From Escherichia coli (GTDB lineage Bacteria; Pseudomonadota; Gammaproteobacteria; Enterobacterales; Enterobacteriaceae): DNA of 64,000 nucleotides. The translations under genes were made by a program, and so were the position numbers. Shown in pieces: positions 3,895 through 63,736 of the stretch. Position 1 is the first letter of the stretch. Each line of letters opens with the position of its first letter. Under the pieces are notes generated by a model. That model ran no database searches. It was given only the letters and a program-made list of their open reading frames with translations, and had not been told where the DNA came from. Location: assembly GCF_024502345.1 (NCBI RefSeq), contig NZ_JALDNN010000001.1; one strand, 5' to 3'.

Positions 3895-5310
3895 TTAAAC
3901 TTCTTTCAGTTTTGCGGTGAAGTGACGCAATACTTTTGGTTCGTAGGTAAAGGTTAATCCTTTAATATTCGCCGCGTTCTCTTTCACATGTTTAAAGGCT
4001 TCAATAATGAAGTCCATATGTGTTTGAGTATATGTTGCGCGCGGAATGGTTAAACGCAGCAGTTCAGCCGGGCATGGCAGTTGTTTACCGGTTTTCGGAT
4101 CGCGGCCTAACAGGAAAGAGCCAATTTCTACCGCACGGATACCGGCGACTTTATACAGCTCGCACGCCAGCGCCTGTGCCGGGAACTGGTCTGCCGGGAT
4201 ATGCGGCAGCAGTTTACCGGCATCAACGAATGCCGCGTGACCGCCCGCCTGCTGGCAGACAACGCCAATCTCTTCCAGACCATCGACCAGATACTGTACC
4301 TGCGCGATACGATAAGCCAGCCAGTCGAGATTCATGCCGTCATACAGACCTACCGCCAGACGCTCCATCGCGCCGCCTTCCAGGCCGCCATATGTCGGGA
4401 AGCCTTCCTGCACCACGCAAAGGGTTCTGCACTCGGTGTACACATCAAAGAAGCTGTCGTCTTTCATGCACAGCAAGCCGCCCATCGGCACCATCGCATC
4501 TTTCTTGGCGGACATCGCCAGCATATCGGCATATTTGTAGGTTTCGCGGGTGATCTGCTCGATGGTCCAGTCTTTGTATTCTGCTTCACGCTGCTTGATG
4601 AAATAGGCGTTTTCAGCAAAGCGTGCGGAGTCCATTACCACCGGAATATCGTATTTCTTCGCGATGCTGTACATAGCTTTTAAGTTTGCCAGTGAAACCG
4701 GCTGACCACCTGCAGAGTTACTGGTGATGGTTGCAACGATATACGGCACGTTATTCGGGCCAACTTCTTCAATACCGCGTTCTAATCCTTCGAGGTCAAA
4801 GTTGCCTTTAAAGTCGTAACGCACGCCCGTATCGAAGGCTTCTTTGATATAGACGTTACGCACGGTACAGCCGTTAATCTGGCTATGGCCCTGCGTGGTA
4901 TCAAAGAAATAGTTAGAGAATGCCACCATTTTGCTGCGATCCAGGCCTTTTTCCTGCTCGCGTTTTTTAATCAGTACCGGAATATAGATTTGCTCTGCGC
5001 CACGGCCCTGGTGAGTCGGAATAGTATATTGATAACCAAAGATATTTTTCACTGACTCGGCTAACGCATAGTAGCTGCGGCTGCCGCTGTAGGCTTCGTC
5101 GCCGCGCATCATCGCTGCCTGCATACTTTGGGTTACCGCCCCGGTGCCGCTGTCGGTCAGTAAATCGATAAACACATCTTCGCTATCCAGCAGGAACGGG
5201 TTCATACCGGATTTAATAATTGCTTCTTCACGATAAGCGCGAGTAGTACGTTTTACTGGCTCAATAACACGAATGCGGAACGGTTCAGGGAGATGTTTAA
5301 AGTTTTCCAT
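3895..5310 (-). CDS. tnaA: tryptophanase
   Basis: ORF translation matches tryptophanase; start set at [14 protein letters not shown] (ATG at 5308-5310 on minus strand) rather than the upstream track start. Confidence 0.9.
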
Positions 5311-5530
5311 TACATAATCCTTCATTTATTTTAATTACAGTGATCCCTGTGAATATTACATCTGCAATATCCATTAATTCGCCATGTATATATACAAGCA
5401 CCATCATTTACTAAAATAAGTAAATAAACGAGAGATGGCCTTTGCAAAAGGCAAAATTAAGATATAGCAAACTAATCGTTCACATTGAATCTAATCGGTT
5501 TGGCTCTGGTGATGGCTACAGAAGGGTAAA

Positions 5531-5605
5531 TTAAGGGCGGTGATCGACAATCTTATTGTCGATATTGAACCATTTTGAGGTCACACATATATGTAAGATA
5601 TTCAT
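5531..5605 (-). CDS. tnaC: tna operon leader peptide TnaC (24 aa)
   Basis: Minus-strand translation gives MNILHICVTSKWFNIDNKIVDHRP then stop; lies about 220 bp upstream of tnaA; below the ORF track length cut-off. Confidence 0.85.
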   Translation of the reverse strand: MNILHICVTSKWFNIDNKIVDHRP

Positions 5606-5847
5606 AATGCACTTATCCTCGAAAGACACGAGGCTACAGTATAATACTCAAGAATTTTGTCTATTCTAAAATTGTTTAAATGTGAATCGAATCACAATCG
5701 TTCGGGGAGCAATATTAAATGCTTTTTTTTAAGATTATAAATTACGTAAGAATTTTAATGTTTAAAAAAAGGGTTGAGGAATAACAGGAGTGCTAACAAT
5801 GAAGCGAAGCCGCATCTGACAGTCAGAATACGGCTTCGTAAGCGCGG

Positions 5848-7212
5848 TTACTTACCAATACAGAAGCTGGAGAAAATCCGCCCCAGCAGGTCGTCAGAGG
5901 TAAATTCCCCGGTGATTTCGCTTAAGTTCTGCTGCGCCAGGCGCAACTCTTCCGCCAGTAGTTCGCCTGCCCAGGCACCTAACAGTTGCGCTTTACCTTG
6001 CTGCAAATGCTCCGCTGCCTGTTCCAGCGCCTGTAGGTGGCGACGGCGCGCCAGGAAGCCGCCTTCCATGTTGGTGTCAAAGCCCATGCTCTGTTTGAGA
6101 TGGTTACGCAGCACGTCCACGCCTTCGCCAGTCCTTGCAGACAGACGAATCAACGCATGACCGTTCACTTCACTCATTCCCAGCGTTTCGCCGGTGATAT
6201 CGGCTTTATTGCGCACCACGGTGATCGGCAGTTTCGCGGGCAGACGGGCGATAAATTCCGGCCAGATCTCTGCCGGATCAACGGCGTCTGTCGTGGTGCC
6301 ATCGACCATAAACAGCACGCGGTCGGCCTGTTCAATTTCCTGCCACGCGCGCTCGATCCCAATACGTTCAACTTCGTCACTGGCTTCACGTAGCCCGGCG
6401 GTATCGATGATATGCAGCGGCATTCCGTCAATATGGATATGCTCACGCAGCACGTCACGCGTGGTTCCGGCGATATCGGTTACGATTGCCGCTTCACGGC
6501 CCGCCAGCGCGTTTAACAGGCTCGATTTACCGGCATTAGGACGTCCGGCAATCACCACCTTCATCCCTTCGCGCAACAAACTACCCTGACGTGCTTCAGC
6601 ACGCACTGCATCGAGATCGGCAATCACGTCATTAAGCTGGGCTTCAATTTTGCCGTCGGAGAGGAAATCGATCTCTTCATCGGGGAAATCAATTGCCGCT
6701 TCAACGTAAATGCGCAAGTGGGTGAGGGCTTCTACCAGATGATTAACCCGTGCGGAGAATGCGCCTTGCAGCGAGTTAAGTGCCGAACGGGCTGCCTGTT
6801 CCGAACTGGCGTCGATAAGATCCGCAATCGCCTCAGCTTGGGCTAAGTCGAGTTTATCGTTAAGAAACGCGCGTTCGGAAAACTCACCAGGGCGAGCAAT
6901 CCGCAGGCCGGGAATGGTCAGAATGCGTTTTAACAGCAGGTCGAGGATCACCGGACCGCCATGACCTTGCAGTTCCAGCACATCTTCGCCGGTGAACGAG
7001 TTCGGGCCAGGGAACCATAGCGCAATCCCCTGATCGAGCACGCTGCCGTCGGCGTCTTTAAACGGAAGATAATCGGCGTAGCGCGGCTTAGGCAGTTTAC
7101 CCAGCACGGTTTCGGCAACTTCACGGGCTTTGAAGCCGGAGATGCGCAGGATGCCAACGCCGCCACGTCCCGGAGGCGTGGCCTGGGCTACGATAGTGTC
7201 ATTATCGCTCAT
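5848..7212 (-). CDS. mnmE: tRNA modification GTPase MnmE
   Basis: 454-aa ORF with GTPase motifs ([14 protein letters not shown]) and C-terminal CIGK. Confidence 0.9.
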
Positions 7213-7313
7213 GATGTTCCTGTTGCTTTGTGTGGCGGATGCGCGGTATCCGCCCTACGAAAAGAAAAAAGGCGGTCAACTGACCGCCCTTATTTTAGCG
7301 AAAACTCACCGAA

Positions 7314-8960
7314 TCAGGATTTTTTCTTCTCGCGGCTATGCAGGCCACGTTTTTCCAGACCACGGTAAATCAGCTGCTGCTGGATAATGGTTACCAGGTT
7401 GCTGACGATATAGTACAGCACCAGACCTGACGGGAACCACAGGAAGAACACGGTGAAGATGACCGGCATAAAGGTCATGATCTTCTGCTGCATCGGGTCG
7501 GTCACTGTGGTCGGCGACATCTTCTGAATGAAGAACATCGTTACGCCCATCAGGATCGGCAGGATGTAGTACGGGTCCTGTGCCGACAGGTCGTGGATCC
7601 ACAGTGCAAACGGTGCCTGACGCAGTTCAACGGAACCCATCAGCATGTAGTACAACGCCAGGAAGATTGGCATCTGGATCAGCAGCGGGAAGCAGCCGCC
7701 CAGCGGGTTAACCTTCTCAGCTTTGTACAGCGCCATCATTTCCTGGCTGATACGCTGTTTGTCATCACCCAGACGCTCACGCATTGCCTGAATCTTCGGC
7801 TGCAGCATACGCATCTTCGCCATGGAGGTGTACTGCGCTTTGGTCAGCGGGTACATGATGCCACGAACGATAAAGGTGATGATGATAATGGAGAAGCCCC
7901 AGTTACCCACAAAGCTATGGATCCATTTCAGCAGTTTGAACAGCGGCTGAGAGATGAACCACAACCAACCGTAATCAACGGTCAGATCCAGGTGCGGAGC
8001 AACAGCTGCCATTTTGTCCTGGATTTCCGGGCCAACCCACAGGGTGCTGTTCATCGCGCCAGTCTGACCAGGCTGAACCAGTACCGGCTGAGATTTATAG
8101 CCGATAGCGGCGATGCCGTTACCCAGATTAGCGGTATAGAAGTTGTTGGTACCGTCGTTATGCGGGATCCACGCCGTCGCGAAATACTGTTGCAGCATTG
8201 CCACCCAACCACCTTTCGAAGAGATGTTCAGGTTTTCGTTATCGGCAATGGTATCGAACTTGTATTTCTCGTACTTCTCGTCAGGCGTGGAGTACGCCGC
8301 GCCGCGGAAGGTGTGCAGTGCGAAGTTGCTGCTTCCGGTATCGAGATGCGGTGGCAGAGTGATGGATTGCTTCAACTGACCAAAGGTGGAGATTTCCAGC
8401 GGTTTCTCGCCAGCGTTCTGCACGTTGTAGTTGACGTTGACAGCGTAATCACCACGTTTCAGGACAAACGTTTTGGTAAACGTGTTGCCTGCCGCGTCGG
8501 TATACGTCATCGGCACCTGCAGTTCGTTTTGACCTTCAGCCAGCACATAAGCGTCTTTTTCAACGTTATACAGCGGACGCGGGCCGTTAGCCGGGTTATC
8601 CGGGCCATCACGACCGGTCAGACCGCTCTGTGCCTGATAAATAAACTGCGGTGAAGTTTCCAGCAGCTGGAACGGCTGGGTAGAGTTCAGCTCTTTCGGG
8701 TAAGCAGGCAGCAGAGCTTGCTCAACATCACCACCACGGGTGTTGATGGTCAGATCAAGCACGTCGGTCTTAACCGAGATCAGTTTCCCCTGGCCACTGG
8801 CCGGTACGCCCTGGTCGGCGGCGCTACCCGCTGCGGTGGTCGTTGTCTGCGTGGTCTGTTGGGCCTGAGGTTGCGGGTTTTTATCCTGCTCCCAGGCTTG
8901 CCAGATCATGAAAGACACGAACAGCAAAGCGATGACTAAAAGATTGCGTTGCGAATCCAT
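7314..8960 (-). CDS. yidC: membrane protein insertase YidC
   Basis: 548-aa ORF; conserved yidC-yidD-rnpA-rpmH arrangement. Confidence 0.9.
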
Positions 8961-8962
8961 CG

Positions 8963-9220
8963 TTAGTGTTCTCTGGTATCAAATGGTCCGGGCGGGACGG
9001 GATCGTCACCACCAGGGTGTAAAGGGTGGCATTTTAATACGCGTTTCACCGTCAACCAACTGCCTTTTATCACTCCAAACCTGCGCAATGCCTCAATTCC
9101 GTAGCTTGAACAGGTTGGAGTGAAACGACAATGCGGCCCGAGTAGCGGACTAATCAGGCGTTGATAGACCCGAATGAGGGCTATCAGGACCCGCGAGCCA
9201 GGCGACAGTGGCGGCGCCAT
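8963..9220 (-). CDS. yidD: membrane protein insertion efficiency factor YidD
   Basis: 85-aa ORF between rnpA and yidC. Confidence 0.8.
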
Positions 9221-9543
9221 AATTTTTCCAACGCTTCCGAGAGAGCACGGTTATCGAGGTCGGCAACCCCTTTTTTCGCCACCACCACGAAATCCATAGC
9301 CGGGAGTTCATGTTGGCGCAGACGGAAGCTTTCACGCGTCAGACGTTTAATCCGATTGCGTTCATGGGCGCGTCGAACGTTTTTCTTGGCGACTGTAAGA
9401 CCGATACGGGGATGCCCCAGCGAATTCAGGCGGCCGAGAATGGTAATTTGCGGCGTGCCAGCCCGTTGTGGCTGCTGGAAGACGAATGTGAATTGACTGG
9501 GAGTTAACAAGCGTAACTCCCTGGGAAATGCGAGCTTAACCAC
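9184..9543 (-). CDS. rnpA: RNase P protein component
   Basis: 119-aa basic protein ORF; conserved position downstream of rpmH. Confidence 0.9.
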
Positions 9544-55928: not shown

Positions 55929-56563
55929 TTTTCCCTCTGCATACTGTTTTGTCGTTTATGTATGCAGGCATGATAGCAAAAATGGCGAGGATGGCTCTGT
56001 TTGCGCCACGCCGATTTTTCTTAGCCCAGACTGGTGAGCTAAATATCTTTAATAAACAGCAGGCAAATCATCGCAATACCCAACATCCCTATCGCCAGCC
56101 AGAACAACGCATGGTAGCTCCAGATTTCAACCATAATTCCGTCAACAGAGCCGGCGATAATCCAGCCGACGCGTGAAGTATTTGCATATAACGTTGTCGC
56201 AGAGCCTATTTTTTCAGGCATCAAGTCCTGAAAATAAAGCATGCCGATACCACAGAGAATACCAAGGAAGATGGCATTAAGAATTTGCAATTCCAGCTCA
56301 ACCGCCGGAGTCGTCGCCATGAGTACGCTGGCGTAAAAACACATTCCACTCACGATAGCAATGAGCATTAATAGTCGCTTGCCAATACGTTTCATGTAAT
56401 AGCCTGCGATTAACATCATCGGAATTTCCAGACCGGCAGCGATACCAATCATTTCTCCAGCCAGTTTATCGGTTAGATGCAGTTCATCAATAATAAATAG
56501 CGGCATATTTATCATGTAGAGATTATTCGCCGCCCACATCATTGAACAAACCACAAAAAGTAG

Positions 56564-57785
56564 CTGTAGATTCAATCTGTCAATGCAACACCCCTTTCAA
56601 TTATCTCTTTCGGTGTTTTGAACTTCAGTGTCTTTCTCGGTCTGTTGTTTAGCTGAGCAGCAACCAGATCTAGTTCATGTTGAGTATATTGGGCAAGACA
56701 TGTCTTTTTAGGAAAGTACTGCCGAATTAGCCCATTTGTGTTCTCATTTGTTCCCCGCTGCCAAGGACTCTGAGGATCGCAGAAGTAAACTTTAACGCCG
56801 GTGCTGACAGTAAATTCTAGATGTCTGGCCAGTTCCATTCCTCTGTCCCATGTCAGTGATTTTCTGAGTTCTGACGGTAAACTCAGGAATTTGTCGGTAA
56901 GAGCCTGATTTACTGAGACAGAATCTTTGCCCCTGAGTCTAAGGATGATCGTATAACGTGATTTTCGGTCTACAAGTGTGGCTATATGAGAGTTTTTTGT
57001 ACCTGAGACTAAATCGCCCTCCCAATGCCCCAGAGAGCGTCTGTTATCGATATTTCGGGAACGTTCGTGAATTGGTGTTCCGTTCACTATGTTAATCGTA
57101 CCTCTTTCGCCTTTGCGGGTATGACGCCTGCCATGGCGAAGGCTATGCGACCGTCGCAGATGCTGTATATTCAGGTGGTGTAGCGCTTCACGGCTACGAA
57201 AGTACAGCGTTTTATAAATTGTCTCAGGTGATATTCGCAGCGTTTTTTGACGTGGTTTTGTTCGCCTTAACCATCCTGATATTTGCTCTGGAGACCATTT
57301 CATCTCCAGCTTTTCCAGAACAAGCTTTCGCAATGGTAAATTTTGATCCAGTAAGCACGGTTTTGGCCTTTTCGCCATTCTGTTGGCTCGGTTATTAGCA
57401 TCAACAGCTTTGTAATAGCGTCTGCCCCGATTACGCTGAACTTCACGTGAGATCGTCGAAGGACTGCGATTCAGCGCAGTAGCTATCGCACGAATGCTCA
57501 TTTTGGCTGACAAACCAGCTCGTATCTCCTCGCGCTCAGACAGTGTCAGGTGAGCTACAGCCCGCTTACGCTCATGGGGTTTTATGCCGCCAGTATCCCT
57601 TAACATAGTGAAGATCGTTCCGGGTTTTGAACCCAGGATATTCGCTATTTCACTGAAGCCTGTTCCGTTCTTCCATAGTTCAAAAACAGAGGCTTTTTCC
57701 TCTGCTGTAAATGTTCGTCTCATTCAAAAAACCTCCGCAACCCCATGTTTTCACATAACTGTTGCGTTGACCAATTGAATCTACA
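56564..57785 (-). mobile_element. IS30 insertion sequence (complete, about 1.22 kb)
   Basis: Terminal inverted repeats (tgtagattcaatctgtcaatgcaacacccc at one end, tgtagattcaattggtcaacgcaacagttatgtgaaaacatgggg in reverse complement at the other) flanked by a 2-bp direct repeat gc. Confidence 0.9.
56572..57723 (-). CDS. insI: IS30 transposase
   Basis: 383-aa ORF with N-terminal HTH and C-terminal DDE integrase fold, fills the IS30 body. Confidence 0.9.
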   Translation of the reverse strand: MRRTFTAEEKASVFELWKNGTGFSEIANILGSKPGTIFTMLRDTGGIKPHERKRAVAHLTLSEREEIRAGLSAKMSIRAIATALNRSPSTISREVQRNRGRRYYKAVDANNRANRMAKRPKPCLLDQNLPLRKLVLEKLEMKWSPEQISGWLRRTKPRQKTLRISPETIYKTLYFRSREALHHLNIQHLRRSHSLRHGRRHTRKGERGTINIVNGTPIHERSRNIDNRRSLGHWEGDLVSGTKNSHIATLVDRKSRYTIILRLRGKDSVSVNQALTDKFLSLPSELRKSLTWDRGMELARHLEFTVSTGVKVYFCDPQSPWQRGTNENTNGLIRQYFPKKTCLAQYTQHELDLVAAQLNNRPRKTLKFKTPKEIIERGVALTD

Positions 57786-58882
57786 GCCGCGTATCTCGCT
57801 TTCTATGGATGGAGGGTAAAATTTCTACGGGTTGGGTAACGACAGGAATATTTCTTTGTATTGATGGCAAAAACAACCAGACTATCAGCCCGCAAACAAC
57901 AAATGCGATGGCAGCGGTGAGATACATCACTTTAAAACTAAATCCCATTGCCAGTTCATAAGCGAGCGGTGGCCCGATAACCCAGGCAAGCGAGATCTGA
58001 GCACGTAAAAATGTACTGAACATGACCGTCTCACGGCCTGTTCTATCGGCGTGTTCACGGGCGAGGGCGAACATTTGCGGGTTTGCGGTGGAAGCAAAAC
58101 TACTCAGAAGTACGCCCGTTGAGAGGAGAATGAAGTAGTTGCGATTCCACGCAAAAAGCGTGCAGGCCAGCACTCCAAATAAGCAACATAGCAGAATCAG
58201 TAATTTACGGTCGCCTTGTTTATCGGAGTGCCTTGCCAGAAATTGACTGACCAGAATTCCCATAATAGCGCTACCGGTGAAGAAAAAACCTACCATTATA
58301 GGACGGGCTTTCAGTTCATCTGCGAGGAATATACTTAGGGTAGGAGTCTGAAGAGCGCCCGCAATACCCGTCAGAAAGGCGACAAGTAAAAATGCCGCGG
58401 CAGTGAGATCAAGTATTTTTGATGGAGTGGTAGCCGTTTTTTGCATTCTTCTGAATCACCGGGCGAAAAAATATAACTGAGTTACAAATAAGTACCAGTC
58501 GAATGAGTATTGTATTAAGAATTTTTGAGTATCGCTGATACAACCAGAAAGCAATGCTAGCGCAATATTATAGGGCCAGCAATTGAGATTATTAGCAAAA
58601 GCATGTTAAGAATTAATTACCGAATTTATATATTAATTATAGTAAGGCAATGAGCTATTTTTGATAGTAAAAATAAAACAAGTTGATTTGATATATTAAA
58701 TGAACAAATTAATCTTGATGGCAGTCTGATTATTGGTGAAGTTTATAGTCAGTTTTTTTCGCCAGCGGTTAAAGAAATAGAATAATCGTATAAAAAAGGG
58801 TGTTCTGGGGCGAGTAAAACAACATCTTCACCTTAATGGCGATACAGTTGGCTGAGAGTCAGCAGGGGGGCAAATCACCTGC

Positions 58883-59003
58883 AAATAAACACGGCGCATA
58901 CTGGCGTGAATATCGCGGATGCGTTCGAGGACAGAAGAACCGACAGGCGGATTCTTCAGCCGCTCATCGTCCATCACAAAACCTTAGACCAGGTATTCCT
59001 GAA
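58883..59003 (-). pseudogene. fragment of a RhuM-family gene (paralogous remnant)
   Basis: About 120 bp with clear nucleotide similarity to 59745-59893 of the intact gene, including a 34-nt identical core; carries a deletion and an in-frame stop. Confidence 0.55.
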
Positions 59004-59214
59004 GCCGATTGAATATTGAGCAGTAGAAAATATCTGGATTGACAGTATTACAAGGGGTTGGAGAACGTCAGGAGAGGCATTTTGGCGATCACAGGAGTCG
59101 CATTCAGCGGCTTGATCTGTTGAATTTAGTGGTTTTTATCGTGTTGGATTTTTGTTGGTGCCCCCTATTATGCCCCCAAATGATTTTGCTTGTGGTGGTT
59201 ATAGGCATTCAGAG

Positions 59215-60252
59215 CTACTTTTTAGGCTCTGTTTTCCATTGTAGCAAACCGGCGATATCCTTCTCACCTTCGGCTTCTTTTAAGCGCCGTTGTTGTTCAG
59301 CAAACTGACCATACTCCGCCTGCGCTTTTTCATCGGCCATTTTCTTACTGATTTTACCTGCGCCTTGCAAAACCTCACGGTCGTTAAATTGCAGGAACTG
59401 ATCCAGCTTATCCTGCCAGTCGCGTAAAAAGACCTGCTGACGACGACGGGCCTGATCCTCGGCAAAATCCAGCCACATGTTAACTACGCGGTTAAGCTCG
59501 CTGACTTCATCCTGAGTGAGATAATTTTTTGCCACCGTCACGTCACCCTTACGCACCTCTTCACCTTTATAGCTGGTCAGCCCCATATGTGGCTGGCTGG
59601 CGTCAGCACGCAGATGAATGAGTTCAGCGGCGGTATGTCCGGTACAGGCAAAATGTAACTTGTTCTGGATGGTTTGAAAAAACTGCGTGGTTTCTTTCAG
59701 TGATGGTTGATAGTCGGCGGCTAACGCAAAGATCTCTCGCACCCGTAAATAAACCCGACGTTCGCTGGCGCGAATATCGCGGATACGCTCCAGCATCTCA
59801 TCGAAATAGTCGGGCACAGCCGATGAACCCACGGGCGGGTTCTTCAGCCGCTCATCGTCCATCACAAAACCTTTGATCAGGTATTCCTGGAGCGTCTGGG
59901 TTGCCCACTGGCGGAACTGCGTGCCGCGAGGGGAGCGAACGCGGTAGCCGACAGCAAGAATAACAGGCAGGCTGTAGTGAAGCCTGTTGCGGCTTACCTG
60001 ACGGCCACCTTCCTGTTGAACTTGTAAGTAAGACTTACAGGTTGCGTTTTGTTCAAGTTCGCCTTCTTCATAGATCGCTTTAATGTGCTGTGTAACTGCC
60101 TGGGGAGTGATCTGATAAAGGTTTGCGATGGTTGCCTGAGGGAGCCATAGTGTCTCTTGCTCAAAGCGGCATTCAACACGAACTTCACCGTCATCGCTGG
60201 CAAACATAACAAATTCGCCTGCCGGGGATTGGGTTAAGTATTTATCTGTCAT
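59215..60252 (-). CDS. RhuM-family protein
   Basis: 345-aa ORF (MTDKYLTQS...) with RhuM-family conserved blocks (VISVGYRV-like, RGTQFRQWATQ, LIKGF..DDERLK). Confidence 0.65.
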   Translation of the reverse strand: MTDKYLTQSPAGEFVMFASDDGEVRVECRFEQETLWLPQATIANLYQITPQAVTQHIKAIYEEGELEQNATCKSYLQVQQEGGRQVSRNRLHYSLPVILAVGYRVRSPRGTQFRQWATQTLQEYLIKGFVMDDERLKNPPVGSSAVPDYFDEMLERIRDIRASERRVYLRVREIFALAADYQPSLKETTQFFQTIQNKLHFACTGHTAAELIHLRADASQPHMGLTSYKGEEVRKGDVTVAKNYLTQDEVSELNRVVNMWLDFAEDQARRRQQVFLRDWQDKLDQFLQFNDREVLQGAGKISKKMADEKAQAEYGQFAEQQRRLKEAEGEKDIAGLLQWKTEPKK

Positions 60253-60339
60253 GCCGTCTCCGCTTATATCTGACTCGCAATGCTGTAATCCGCTTAGTAT
60301 GCCAGAAATTCTTGGTGAAGCTTATTACGCAGATAGCGT

Positions 60340-61173
60340 TTATTTTGCGGGCAGCGCTCCCGGATAATGCTTTGCCACAATGTCATTCATCTTCTCCACC
60401 AGGTCCAGACGCTTAAACGTGATATGCCCGTTGCCTTTCTGAAAGTAGCGAATGGTGAACATATCGTCTTTAAAGACCTGTTGATGCGGGTTATCGCGAA
60501 CAAAATTCATAAATCGGATAGAGACATCATGCCGGTTGTCAGGAATGGTTTTGCCATCCAGCAGGTAAAGCATCCGTTCCAGATCGGCGAGCTGATCGCG
60601 CCGCCAGCCCCAGTTCAGACTGAAGCCCCATCTGTCATGCTTCACCAGATTGTTGACGATAATCTTCTTACCGAAGTAACAGGGATTATTGGTTTTGTAG
60701 TCCCAGCTTAACCCTTTAAATACATTGATAATCCCACGTTCGAAAACATCCTGTTTATTGTGGTGGAGTTGTTCAAAGGTACTTAGGATGTTGGCTTCAC
60801 TGATGGCCGGAAGATCGCCCTCTTCGAGGTTTTTAGCCCACTGGCTGCGGGCTTCGGCATCCATCAAGGTCAACATCCCGGACTTCAGCATGAGATCGCG
60901 CCAGATACTGCGATCGATATTGCAGGTAATCACCGGCATCGCTTTATCGACTGGTTGCATCAGCCAGCAGTCAAAGGAATGGCCCTGTCGCATCGCCCAA
61001 TGCTCCGCCACATCACCACCGATGCTGGAGGTTAGCCGTGAGATATCATCAAGCTTATGGATCAGGATTTCTATCAGGCTCAGCGCAGCATCACGCCCTG
61101 TGACGATGCGTTCTATACTGGTTGAGCAAATTAGCTCATTATGATCGGTTAAAACTTCAGCTTCTGTTTGCAT
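60340..61173 (-). CDS. DUF4942-like protein
   Basis: 277-aa ORF from ATG 61171-61173 (MQTEAEVLTDHNE...); family call from memory of proteins encoded downstream of CbtA-family toxins. Confidence 0.5.
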   Translation of the reverse strand: MQTEAEVLTDHNELICSTSIERIVTGRDAALSLIEILIHKLDDISRLTSSIGGDVAEHWAMRQGHSFDCWLMQPVDKAMPVITCNIDRSIWRDLMLKSGMLTLMDAEARSQWAKNLEEGDLPAISEANILSTFEQLHHNKQDVFERGIINVFKGLSWDYKTNNPCYFGKKIIVNNLVKHDRWGFSLNWGWRRDQLADLERMLYLLDGKTIPDNRHDVSIRFMNFVRDNPHQQVFKDDMFTIRYFQKGNGHITFKRLDLVEKMNDIVAKHYPGALPAK

Positions 61174-61287
61174 GATATTTTGTCCGTAAAAAGCAAACAC
61201 GCCCGCCGGGAGTGGCAGGCGCATTATGCAATGAGTAAATAAGGAAGACAGATCGGGAATGTAATTCGGGAAGGAGGCTCGCAAGAT

Positions 61288-61620
61288 TCAGCGTGTCGAA
61301 AGATTATGGCCTTGTCGTAACAACCCCATTGCCTGTCGCGCCCGCAAAATGTCTACAGCCCGCAGATAAGGCGATTGTTCCTGCCAGCTAAATCCTTTGC
61401 GATCGATGCGAACGAGTTCGTATTTTTCCACCAGAAAGTTCACGGCATCGGCAAGAGTAACGCCTGCGTTGATATGTTCCTGAATGACTGTTTCATCGCA
61501 GAATGGCGTGTCACTCAGGGCCAGGCCATAGTGTTGTGCAAGTAGACGGGTCAGTAACATCTGCCAGACGGCCACAGGCGACGGGCATGGCTTCGCTATG
61601 TGTGCGTCCTCCTTTCGCAT
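61288..61620 (-). CDS. CbtA/YeeV-family toxin homolog with atypical N-terminus, no adjacent antitoxin gene
   Basis: 110-aa ORF whose body ([28 protein letters not shown]...AVNFLVEKY...DILRAR) aligns to the YeeV/YkfI/YpjF family; first 12 residues differ and overlap the upstream ORF. Confidence 0.65.
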
Positions 61621-62329
61621 TGCGCCCGTTCAGACCACCTTTAATCAGGTTCTCCTGAATGCGCTGATAGGTTGTCCAGAGGTCACCGGACTCATCCTGC
61701 CAGCGACGGGGAGCCAGTAGCTGAGATTCCGTCACCGGCTGATGCTCTTCGCCAAAACGATACGTCAGCGCAGCTTGCGCCAGCGCCGCCTGTGCTGGTG
61801 GAGGTAGCATGAGTGACTGCATGGCATCGCGCTTCTCTTCTACGCGGTCAAATATCCCCAGCACTTCGTAAGCCCCTTCAATGACCTTCTCTACTACGTT
61901 GCCTTTATGCGGGACACGCACCTCCCCGAACGACTCGCCGCAAATCAACCCATTTTGGCAAACAGATCTGAATAAACCCGGCAGCATTTGATATGAACTG
62001 GAGCCGTCATGGCTGTTAAGCAGGATTATTTCTGGCACTTGTTTGCCAGTAATCTGGCCTTCTCGGCGTAGGCGCAGCATGTGTTTGGTGTGCTCACGCT
62101 TGCTCTGGTCCCGCACTCGGGTCTGGCAGGCAAAGAACGGTTGAAAGCCTTCACGCTTCAGGTTATCGAGCAGAGTGATTGTCGGAATGTAGGTATAGCG
62201 GTCACTGCGGGATTCATGTTTGTCTTCGCTGAAGACGCTGGGCACATAGTGCGCCAGCTCCTCGCGGGTTAACGGGCGGTCACGGCGCACAAGATTGGTA
62301 GCACCAAAACGGCTGGCTAAACGGGTCAT
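61511..62329 (-). CDS. DUF932-like protein (YfjQ/YafZ-like), C-terminus overlapping the toxin ORF
   Basis: 272-aa ORF from ATG 62327-62329 (MTRLASRFG...) with ggag RBS; last 37 codons overlap the toxin ORF in another frame. Confidence 0.55.
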
Positions 62330-62399
62330 AGGCGACTCCTTTAAAAATGGGCATAAAAAAGCCACCCCGAAGGATGGCCTGGATTGAAAGGCTGGATTA

Positions 62400-62849
62400 T
62401 TAAGGTGAAACAGAAGGGTGTATCTGCGATGCAGTCTTTTCTGAATCTGGTATCGGCAATGCAGATAGTTCGGCAGGACTAAGCTTTCCTGCGCGGTAAA
62501 GTTGCAGTTTCACCAGAATCGGCGCTTTTTGCGACTGAAGGTAACTCAGGCACCATTCCCGCTTCAGGACTATCCTGACCGGGGCAGGCAAAAGCTCATA
62601 TGCTTTGCTAAAAACGACTTCAACAAAAGCATCATCACTCAGTTTATCCTCGGCAATATTCAACAGACCATTGATGACAATATTTTCCAGTAACAGCCTG
62701 TATTTGTCAGAACCCGTTACCGAAGCTTTAACCGTGTTTTCCGGTAAGTGTTCAGAAGATGTGTCATGATTTTCTGTGTGTGCTTTTCTGCGTGAGAAAT
62801 TCAGCTTTTCTGTAAGGCTACGAAATTTTCCTGTGCTATTTTCAGACAT
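62400..62849 (-). CDS. hypothetical protein (149 aa)
   Basis: ORF from ATG 62847-62849 (MSENSTGKF...) with agga RBS about 9 nt upstream; co-oriented 70 bp upstream of the DUF932-like gene; no family recognised. Confidence 0.45.
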   Translation of the reverse strand: MSENSTGKFRSLTEKLNFSRRKAHTENHDTSSEHLPENTVKASVTGSDKYRLLLENIVINGLLNIAEDKLSDDAFVEVVFSKAYELLPAPVRIVLKREWCLSYLQSQKAPILVKLQLYRAGKLSPAELSALPIPDSEKTASQIHPSVSP

Positions 62850-63092
62850 CGTAATTTTATCCTGTGGCCTCCGCGTCTTGCCATCAGGCAAGTACGGCGA
62901 GTTTTTTTATCGCTTTAATCAGGCTAAAGGTGGTCAAACCTGCACCTAGAGCCCTGACCGTGACCGAATGGCTTCGCATCAACGTAACCCCCATTACGCA
63001 CAGGACAAGTTGCCACGTACAATCAGGCCATGGGGGGTCATTACCCGGCATGTCCGTAACCACTTCGCTTTGACTATGCACGGAAAACACCT

Positions 63093-63736
63093 CTACTTGT
63101 AGCCATTAGGGAGCCACTGGCCCTGTTTGCGAATATCAGTAATAATGCCCCCCTCTTTGACCGAAATGGTACGCCAGCTTGGTTCTTTGCTGGATGCATT
63201 CCCATAGGTATACCCGACAGTCATTGTCAGGTTTTCGCCTGAAGTTGTGGTGAGATCAGCCTCATACTTAGCTTCGGTATTTTGTTTGCGAATAAAACGC
63301 ACGGTGTTGATTGCAGAACAGCGAATACTGCTTTTCGCATATTCAAAGGAATTGTTAGCCATTTGGCATCCGTCGTTTTTAATTTCATCCGTCAGGTTTG
63401 CAGAAACATTAAAGTTCTTAGGTACAGGGGCAAATTTAGCCATGTCGTTTCGCATAGTCGGTGGATCTGTCTGAAGCACAAGATAAACAGGACAATCTGA
63501 TTTGCCTACTTCACACGCTTTTGCCACGTAATCACGTACTGGCCATCCAGCATTACCGAAATATTCCGCACCACTTTCATCTTTGCATTGTGACCAGGTA
63601 GCTTTTTTCCCCATCATAATGCCGTCTACCAGCACACAGGTGACGGCTTTTACAGGCTCACCATCCCACCGGACTGCATCAAAGGGCTGAATGCCTGTAT
63701 GGTTCACGTCAAGCGTGTAGGCCTGTGGATTCCTAG
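63093..63736 (-). pseudogene. hypothetical protein, 5' end truncated by IS5
   Basis: Reading frame open from the IS5 junction to stop at 63093; the first 23 residues of the track ORF are encoded by the IS5 terminus; no family recognised. Confidence 0.45.

Follow-up and report, generated by a model that had tools for sequence, protein, structure and literature searches.

Why does a gene of the DUF4942 family stand so regularly behind a toxin gene at the ends of enterobacterial genomic islands? We took up this question for one such gene, in a stretch of 64,000 nucleotides from the Escherichia coli contig NZ_JALDNN010000001.1 (assembly GCF_024502345.1), called the window throughout. A sequence-only reading of the window had singled out the gene because it follows a toxin gene, here of the CbtA family, and had suggested that this repeated linkage reflects a functional connection. 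Our analysis leads elsewhere. The adjacency to CbtA is shared membership of a gene block, without dependence of one gene on the other, and we give a probability of about one half to the interpretation that DUF4942 proteins are nucleic-acid-handling establishment or anti-defence factors of mobile elements, with a regulatory unit of their own.

An intact DUF4942 gene in the window

In itself the gene is ordinary and already annotated, as the family is in thousands of genomes.

60340 to 61173, minus strand: intact DUF4942 coding sequence, 277 amino acids (aa), from the open reading frame (ORF), the sequence and Pfam

It begins with an ATG at 61173, runs for 277 codons to a stop codon ending at 60340, and lies on the same strand as the toxin gene, just as first described. 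The protein scores 238.2 bits against Pfam PF13708 (DUF4942), with an E value of 7.4e-71 and a cutoff of 25, and passes the gathering threshold; residues 85-271 align with profile positions 3-189 of 190. Because of this score and the near-complete coverage of the profile, the protein is a true DUF4942 member and not only the DUF4942-like product of the first description, and no unrelated characterised family emerged for it. Its DNA is 100% identical to that of the E. coli G3/10 gene, which carries the PGAP name 'DUF4942 domain-containing protein' (WP_047399701.1, 277 aa), and searches of NCBIfam and PADLOC gave no match for the window protein. The reading frame stays open farther upstream, so that databases hold 294-aa versions and a mechanical ORF of 314 aa is possible. 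The longer frame would cross the conserved hairpin and T-run described below and is not conserved as protein elsewhere, and for this reason we regard the 277-aa start, which NCBI's pipeline also chose, as the right one. The gene and the family have been recorded before, and so have the place at island ends behind toxins of the CbtA type and the enrichment in leading regions of plasmids.

DUF4942 in plasmid leading regions

The leading region of a conjugative plasmid is the DNA that enters the recipient first, and it carries anti-defence and establishment genes. Plasmid homologs of the window gene are found in arrays of this kind. On a pOXA-48-like IncL plasmid the homolog lies in a same-strand array leading to mobA-traI, together with a JAB/RadC-like gene, DGQHR genes, hha, a DUF1380 gene, an antirestriction gene and ssb. 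On an IncI1 plasmid mobC and nikA-nikB come directly after the homolog, which shares its strand with ardA, psiA, psiB and a ParB-like gene; the IncI1 origin of transfer (oriT) is situated just upstream of nikA.

In Supplementary Table 1 of Samuel et al. (Nature 2024, PMC11541004), DUF4942 appears as two leading-region-enriched families, 24 and 76, both marked 'Uncharacterized'. Family 24 has 2,171 members, a false-discovery-rate p value of 0, a median position of 1 from oriT and an orientation that makes it transcribable from the incoming transferred single strand (T-strand), and family 76 has 551 members, p = 2e-100 and a median position of 6 (PMC11541004). The same table lists DUF932 (YubP/YafZ, median position 1), KlcA and DUF905 (YkfF/YubL), all of which are also companions of DUF4942 in chromosomal islands. 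Since these companion families recur, the island block from DUF932 to DUF4942 looks like an integrated leading region. Toxin-antitoxin genes, too, are over-represented in leading regions (PMC11541004), so the toxin adjacency can be explained without any link specific to DUF4942.

How alike are the plasmid and island copies? The plasmid proteins YdiA/YgfB (IncI1, IncB/O/K/Z) and Orf25 (IncL/M, pOXA-48-like) belong to the same Pfam family, with E values of 4e-51 and 1e-50; they measure 282-286 aa, are 37-40% identical to the window protein over 96% of its length, and have the same conserved motifs. They also share companion families with the island, namely DUF932, KlcA/antirestriction, JAB/RadC and DUF905. 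In its orientation the window gene faces the end of the island, as genes of leading regions face oriT. The two settings differ in that the plasmid copies adjoin a known oriT and have no CbtA nearby, whereas the window copy is chromosomal and sits at a selC-side island end. Upstream sequences differ as well: a hairpin lacking the T-run precedes the IncL copy, and a long structured region precedes the IncI1 copy.

Another explanation is that DUF4942 is a defence or exclusion gene, which would shield host or island from phages or rival mobile elements in the manner of the variable cargo beside it. According to a 2026 preprint (10.64898/2026.01.13.699239), many genomic islands have an oriT only, with genes for both defence and counter-defence gathered near it, and the genes downstream of DUF4942 include known or candidate defence genes (RhuM of family PDC-S05, DUF6088 with AbiEii, Macro and HNH genes). 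We nevertheless think a defence role unlikely. No PADLOC model matches DUF4942, the plasmid copies lie beside oriT in the incoming-strand orientation among ardA, psiB and ssb, as is typical of early counter-defence, and the family, which 83% of E. coli genomes carry and many of them more than once, is near-universal, unlike defence genes with their patchy distribution.

Independence from CbtA across the family

The family forms 2,208 clusters at 50% identity. Among 5,426 complete E. coli genomes, 4,499 (~83%) carry DUF4942, at a median of 2 places and a maximum of 9. In a tblastn search a homolog was found in 4,506 of 72,556 plasmid records (~6%), 4,126 of them conjugative; a CbtA toxin query matched only 66 plasmids. 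We further inspected seven contigs with distant homologs, 33-43% identical, and none had CbtA. What surrounds them instead is a split ArdC (ArdC-N plus SprT-like), a RadC gene immediately upstream, early genes together with a phage integrase, N6/N4 methyltransferases close by, or arrays of small unknown ORFs. DUF4942 and the toxin-antitoxin pair are thus not obligately found together across the family.

These counts bear directly on the suggestion that in Enterobacterales the CbtA/CbeA type IV toxin-antitoxin module includes DUF4942 as a third component, whether as regulator, second antitoxin or effector, which would be co-transcribed with the toxin by read-through and would modulate its action on FtsZ and MreB. 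With far more plasmids carrying DUF4942 than CbtA, and with distant homologs never beside CbtA in the seven contexts, we consider such a role doubtful. K-12 adds the reciprocal case. Its CbtA-family systems work as two-component pairs, and on a K-12-type chromosome (NZ_CP026026.1) the CP4-6 element has the toxin-antitoxin genes ykfI/yafW and DUF4942 only as a 68-bp stub, so that ykfI and yafW persist without an intact copy. The stub, at 262369-262436, consists of the first 68 bp of DUF4942, lies 115 bp downstream of ykfI and beside thrW, and is unannotated.

One plasmid carries a complete version of the island arrangement. On the non-mobilizable E. coli plasmid pMTY18781-2 (NZ_AP023207.1), positions 4858-9239 read DUF932, RadC, YeeU, CbtA and DUF4942 (90% identity), followed by DUF6088, AbiEii and HNH genes, and chromosomal nan genes are also aboard. 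The plasmid may have captured an island, or the sequence may be a piece of chromosome wrongly assigned to a plasmid.

Linkage to the toxin in enterobacterial islands

What, then, of the linkage in the islands themselves? We scanned gene neighbourhoods with a 19-sequence alignment as query and one genome per species, which gave 80 loci at 63-96% protein identity; because all 80 are Enterobacterales with at least 63% identity, the statistics in this section describe that clade only. A CbtA gene lies upstream of DUF4942 on the same strand in 73 of the 80 species loci. The gap between the two is at most 200 bp in 51 of these 73 and 200-1,000 bp in 18, and four have unrelated insertions of more than 1 kb; in 45 of the 80 loci the spacer is held at 112-118 bp. 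The idea of a conserved linkage to toxin genes stands for enterobacterial islands and fails for the family as a whole.

The same figures, together with CbtA upstream in all six E. coli loci described next, are what the third-component explanation has in its favour: a same-strand toxin almost always in front and a tightly held spacer. Up to 2.8 kb of unrelated genes are tolerated between toxin and DUF4942, which is hard to reconcile with it. In some species this interval acts as an insertion slot (locus L010, 3728-5853; L012, 5139-5861; L080, 3244-5503; L017, 4086-5537), holding an AAA_15/AAA_21 ATPase with a 244-aa partner that is defence-system-like, calcineurin-like phosphoesterases, or a family-2 glycosyltransferase.

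The string toxin-DUF5983-DUF4942, which the sequence-only reading had described for E. coli cryptic elements, is real: six of six E. coli loci, chosen to span the range of similarity and adjoining serX, ileX, aspV or setC, read CbtA, DUF5983, DUF957, DUF4942, with DUF957 as an additional member. In the window the DUF5983 position is indeed empty, the gap holding no DUF5983 ORF. Across species a 163-aa DUF5983 protein (PF25638 plus PF19419) occurs within 3.5 kb upstream in 19 of 80 loci and a small 67-aa ORF upstream of DUF4942 in nine. Given a short gap in 51 of 80 loci and DUF5983 in only 19, the empty slot is the commoner form and no anomaly. PGAP names the small ORF between DUF5983 and DUF4942 'DUF957 domain-containing protein' (locus L073, 5699-5902; L098, 3409-3606); the 67-aa and 65-aa copies so named gave no score against the Pfam library used.

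Downstream of DUF4942 come either core genes (folD, rpoD or a permease), marking island ends, or variable cargo such as an HTH_3 protein, DUF6088 with AbiEii, and Macro or HNH genes. We considered RhuM, the next gene in the window, as a conserved partner and rejected it, as a scan of 77 loci showed it behind DUF4942 in only 2. DUF4942 is the terminal conserved gene of the block, with a variable cargo slot beyond it that is here occupied by RhuM, and apart from rhuM remnants we found no conserved non-coding element downstream of it.

A conserved hairpin in front of DUF4942

The gap between toxin stop and DUF4942 start is exactly the 114 bp given in the first description, and it is not featureless.

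61174 to 61287, minus strand: 114-bp spacer from toxin stop to DUF4942 start (direct reading)
61186 to 61225, minus strand: GC-rich hairpin followed by a T-run, resembling an intrinsic terminator (terminator scan)

The hairpin occupies 61225-61196 and the T-run extends down to 61186, ending 12 nt before the DUF4942 ATG, so that the structure adjoins the ribosome-binding site of DUF4942 on its upstream side. In the terminator scan the stem has 12 pairs, 7 of them G-C, followed by TGCTTTTTAC, and the hairpin also forms in an RNA fold. Among 75 distinct Enterobacterales loci, 95.7% of stem cells pair and compensatory double changes occur in 8 of 8 pairs (one stem position alternates between U-A, A-U and C-G); none of 500 shuffles and no slid register reached these values. 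The hairpin is kept equally well whether the gene upstream is the toxin or DUF957 (loci L004-L083), a further point against a dedicated toxin partner. An Rfam search of the spacer and the island end returned no known RNA family at E <= 1.

The toxin gene and DUF4942 thus share a strand and are separated by 114 bp with a terminator-like hairpin in between. This hairpin looks like an intrinsic terminator of the upstream unit that insulates DUF4942 from the gene before it, and therefore DUF4942 would be an at least partly separate regulatory unit. A conserved GCATAA(T) abuts the 5' side of the hairpin; GCATAAT may represent a -10 box, or it may be no more than the terminator's A-tract. A consensus scan of the spacer for a sigma-70 promoter of DUF4942 found none. 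The T-run ending 12 nt before the ATG leaves little room for a classical promoter, so that expression may depend on read-through from the toxin operon, a point in favour of the third-component explanation. DUF4942 may be expressed in this way or from a start near GCATAA(T).

The suggested toxin-specific functional connection accordingly finds no support, with 66 against 4,506 plasmids, no CbtA in the seven distant contexts, partners that each survive alone, and the insulating hairpin. We read the adjacency as a shared position in the block, on account of the plasmid counts, the distant contexts, the lone partners, the insertions and the hairpin.

Protein structure and methyltransferase relatives

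What kind of protein is it? As proposed with the original observation, structure was predicted and folds were compared. An AlphaFold2 model from a 114-sequence alignment is confident, with a mean predicted local distance difference test (pLDDT) score of 91.4 and a predicted template modelling (pTM) score of 0.81, and consists of a long N-terminal helix (residues 20-50), a helical region (75-156) and an alpha/beta domain in which helices flank two meanders of three or four strands each (163-186 and 233-253). No solved fold matched the model, neither the single protein nor the 114-sequence profile found a match among PDB sequences, and a structure search of BFVD returned only DUF4942-like phage proteins. 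The isoelectric point rises from 4.7 (residues 1-74) through 5.2 (75-156) to 9.55 (157-277).

The family motifs SWDYKTN, FGKRII, LDGKPEPDHR and GxxHxTFKR appear in the window protein as S156-W157-D-Y-K160-T-N162, FGKKII, D197-L-E-R200 and GNGH250ITFKR. Among proteins 32-60% identical, D197 is invariant, and S156, W157, K160, N162, R200, H250 and others are at least 90% conserved. The gene is under strong purifying selection: the ratio of nonsynonymous to synonymous substitution rates (dN/dS) against the window gene has a median of 0.085 and a range of 0.043-0.117, and 76 of 80 orthologs are intact.

Some relatives are longer. Proteins of 460-543 aa contain the whole of DUF4942 followed by a small class I S-adenosylmethionine (SAM) methyltransferase domain with VLEPSAGxG and NPPF motifs, as in P0186, P0193, P0226, P0230 and gp22 of phage phiPSA1; matches to the methyltransferase part are found among phage 'DNA methyltransferase' families and among giant multidomain proteins of phages. 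In gp22 of this Pseudomonas phage (543 aa; PHROG 6263) and its kind, the N-terminal ~270 residues align with the whole 277-aa window protein, motifs included, and the window protein ends where the methyltransferase domain starts. Such fusions make up ~3% of the best representatives and most of the phage homologs.

A methyltransferase function for the window protein itself was rejected, as it has no SAM-binding or NPPF motif, no corresponding Pfam hit and no methyltransferase fold. The label stems from the fusion relatives, and the legacy name 'methyltransferase domain protein' misleads when given to standalone proteins. Could these proteins be decaying remnants of a methyltransferase that lost its catalytic half and with it any function? 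Full-length fusions do exist, old database names do say 'methyltransferase', and some copies are frameshifted or truncated. The idea is barely credible all the same: among the best 150 representative clusters 146 are non-fusion, of which 113 are full-length standalone proteins (245-310 aa) and most others fragments; the family is conserved from plasmids to phages; and purifying selection, with 76 of 80 orthologs intact and dN/dS at 0.04-0.12, effectively refutes it.

A different possibility is that DUF4942 is an enzyme, with D197, H250, K160, N162, R200 and W157 as putative active site and with a nucleic acid or small molecule as its target (an immune signal or a DNA modification, for instance); its role could then still be anti-defence. 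The motifs are very strongly kept at 32-60% identity, which is unusual for a target-recognition domain, normally variable, the methyltransferase fusions retain the same motifs, and the dN/dS of ~0.085 would suit an enzyme. We find this rather improbable, for there is no fold or sequence match to any enzyme superfamily, and fusion to a methyltransferase suggests an accessory role. Two candidate enzyme classes were rejected on motif inspection: 2H phosphoesterases, of which the protein has only one HxT-like motif, and PD-(D/E)xK nucleases, whose pattern is absent.

A possible establishment or anti-defence factor

How might these strands fit together? In the explanation that we put at roughly even odds, DUF4942 would be the last conserved gene of a block at enterobacterial island ends that runs DUF932, (KlcA antirestriction), RadC/JAB, DUF987, YeeU antitoxin, CbtA toxin, (DUF5983, DUF957), DUF4942, and this block would be the chromosomal counterpart of the leading region of a conjugative plasmid. 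The protein would match the entire N-terminal, non-catalytic stretch (~270 residues) of a class of DNA methyltransferases found in phages and plasmids, minus the methyltransferase domain; its basic C-terminal alpha/beta domain may contact DNA, and its acidic helical N-terminal half may serve oligomerisation or partner contacts. Placed behind the terminator-like hairpin, the gene would be regulated, and presumably expressed early, as a unit of its own and not merely as the last gene of the toxin operon. A bolder form of this explanation, which we offer tentatively and think more probably wrong than right, would make DUF4942 an unrecognised anti-restriction or establishment protein, the DNA-handling module of orphan methyltransferases of mobile elements without their catalysis, expressed as a separate unit from the edge of IncI1-type plasmids that enters first. 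It would also give the tRNA-integrated 'cryptic prophage' islands (CP4-6-like, LEE-flanking, SRL and TAI) a genuine plasmid-like leading region, so that these islands would be conjugatively mobilised now or in the recent past.

Small restriction-alleviation and antirestriction proteins of mobile elements, such as lambda Ral, ArdA, ArdB/KlcA and ArdC, offer a functional analogy and nothing closer. Like them, DUF4942 is borne by mobile elements, in early or leading regions, and co-located with klcA- or ardA-type genes; in sequence and structure it bears no similarity to them.

Several observations weigh against an establishment or anti-defence role. Within the Enterobacterales islands, the linkage of DUF4942 to the toxin and the fixed spacing of ~114 bp are strikingly conserved. 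DUF4942 matches no known anti-restriction, anti-CRISPR or PADLOC defence protein in sequence or structure, and PMC11541004 likewise reports no known anti-defence match for its DUF4942 families. A conserved partner or a catalytic site would explain the strongly conserved motifs no less well than DNA recognition would. Neither the window nor eight related loci showed similarity to IncI1 or IncL oriT regions, and because no oriT is recognised in the island, the leading-region analogy holds for it by gene content only. In the literature we found passing mentions of DUF4942 members and no functional study or functional annotation of any.

The island end and a deletion in the toxin module

The surroundings of the gene record a history of their own, and they supply one more test of dependence on the toxin.

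61288 to 61620, minus strand: CbtA-family toxin ORF, 110 aa, with a chimeric 5' end (Pfam CbtA_toxin PF06755, E 2.6e-57)
61511 to 62365, minus strand: DUF932 gene that has lost its 3' end and reads out of frame into the toxin region (Pfam DUF932, E 1.1e-48)
61597 to 61598, no strand: junction where 1,299 bp are deleted in comparison with E. coli G3/10; 'TA' microhomology (BLAST of the window and junction sequences)
59215 to 60252, minus strand: RhuM-family gene, 345 aa, the last island gene, 87 bp downstream of DUF4942 (Pfam Virulence_RhuM, E 1e-115)
59083 to 59100, minus strand: cgactcctgtgatcgcca, resembling the 3' end of tRNA-Sec (selC), candidate right-end attachment repeat (direct reading)
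56572 to 57723: IS30-type transposase ORF (HTH_38 plus rve), with setC fragments at 57781-58446 and 56039-56575

On the minus strand the window reads DUF932, toxin ORF, DUF4942, RhuM, ~770 bp of non-coding DNA, setC, yicL and nlpA. E. coli G3/10 and CFSAN051542 have the same island end at the same site, and there the order is DUF932, RadC, DUF987, YeeU antitoxin, CbtA, DUF4942, RhuM, setC. The 1,299-bp deletion accounts for the difference: it took out radC, the DUF987 gene and the YeeU-family antitoxin, as well as the 3' end of DUF932 and ~31 nt at the start of the toxin gene. What remains of DUF932 matches profile positions 1-212 of 227. A foreign ATG (61620) within DUF932-derived sequence now opens the toxin ORF, its first ~8 codons are DUF932-derived, and its N-terminus reads MRKEDAHI- in place of the MNTSPATNQRV- of the 113-aa G3/10 toxin; upstream of the new start there is only a poorly spaced Shine-Dalgarno-like AGGTGG, at 14 nt. 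As a result of the deletion the window toxin is a 5'-chimeric orphan without antitoxin, so that of the toxin module originally described, a CbtA-family ORF is present and the intact module is not, antitoxin and native toxin start having gone. The deletion left DUF4942 untouched, intact and identical to the G3/10 gene even with antitoxin and native toxin start lost, which would be unexpected of a third component of that module.

Identity to G3/10 is 99.8% over window positions 58001-61598 and 94.3% over 61597-63732, and the switch coincides with the deletion junction. Because of this coincidence the junction may be a recombination point between two island variants, a suggestion that we prefer to a simple internal deletion.

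Comparable island ends have been described. A published table of the SRL island lists orf53 (toxin), orf54 (YeeW-like), orf55 (DUF957) and orf56 (DUF4942), equivalent to L0007-L0010 of the LEE element of EDL933. These SRL- and LEE-type loci hold the same family at the same island-end place, downstream of a YeeV/CbtA-like toxin. They differ from the window in having DUF5983 and DUF957 between toxin and DUF4942, where the window has the short 114-bp form, and in the antitoxin, which the window has lost.

Beyond DUF4942, the RhuM protein matches the PADLOC candidate defence family PDC-S05 (E 1e-171). A fragment of rhuM sits in the non-coding DNA between intact rhuM and setC and bears a rhuM-pseudogene annotation in related strains (the window segments concerned are 58876-59005 and 59822-59893). 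With ~90% identity to an internal portion of the intact gene, it looks like what is left of an earlier island end. The sequence cgactcctgtgatcgcca follows ~115 bp beyond the rhuM stop and probably marks the right island boundary. We take it to resemble the 3' end of tRNA-Sec (selC), a likeness that a stricter search, for a 24-nt selC 3' pattern with up to 3 mismatches, failed to recover. The flank nlpA-yicL-setC agrees with a selC-side neighbourhood, and since the window has no tRNA gene, selC itself must lie past its end. In the same flank setC, which encodes a sugar-efflux transporter of the major facilitator superfamily, is split by the IS30-type element (region 56039-58446); the gene is whole in G3/10 and CFSAN051542.

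Implications

For annotation practice two consequences follow: the adjacency of DUF4942 to a toxin should not be taken as a three-gene toxin system, and the old 'methyltransferase' family label is wrong for standalone DUF4942 proteins. The view of the family needs redirecting, from toxin partner to leading-region-type gene.

Among proteins annotated without a function DUF4942 is conspicuous, being present in ~83% of complete E. coli genomes and ~6% of plasmids, including IncI1 and pOXA-48-type resistance plasmids, and on IncI1 plasmids it is the gene nearest the origin of transfer. The family is abundant, conserved and uncharacterised enough to merit direct experiment. If an anti-defence or establishment role proves true, DUF4942 would become a target for blocking the spread of resistance plasmids, and the CP4-type 'cryptic prophages' of E. 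coli would be tied to conjugative biology.

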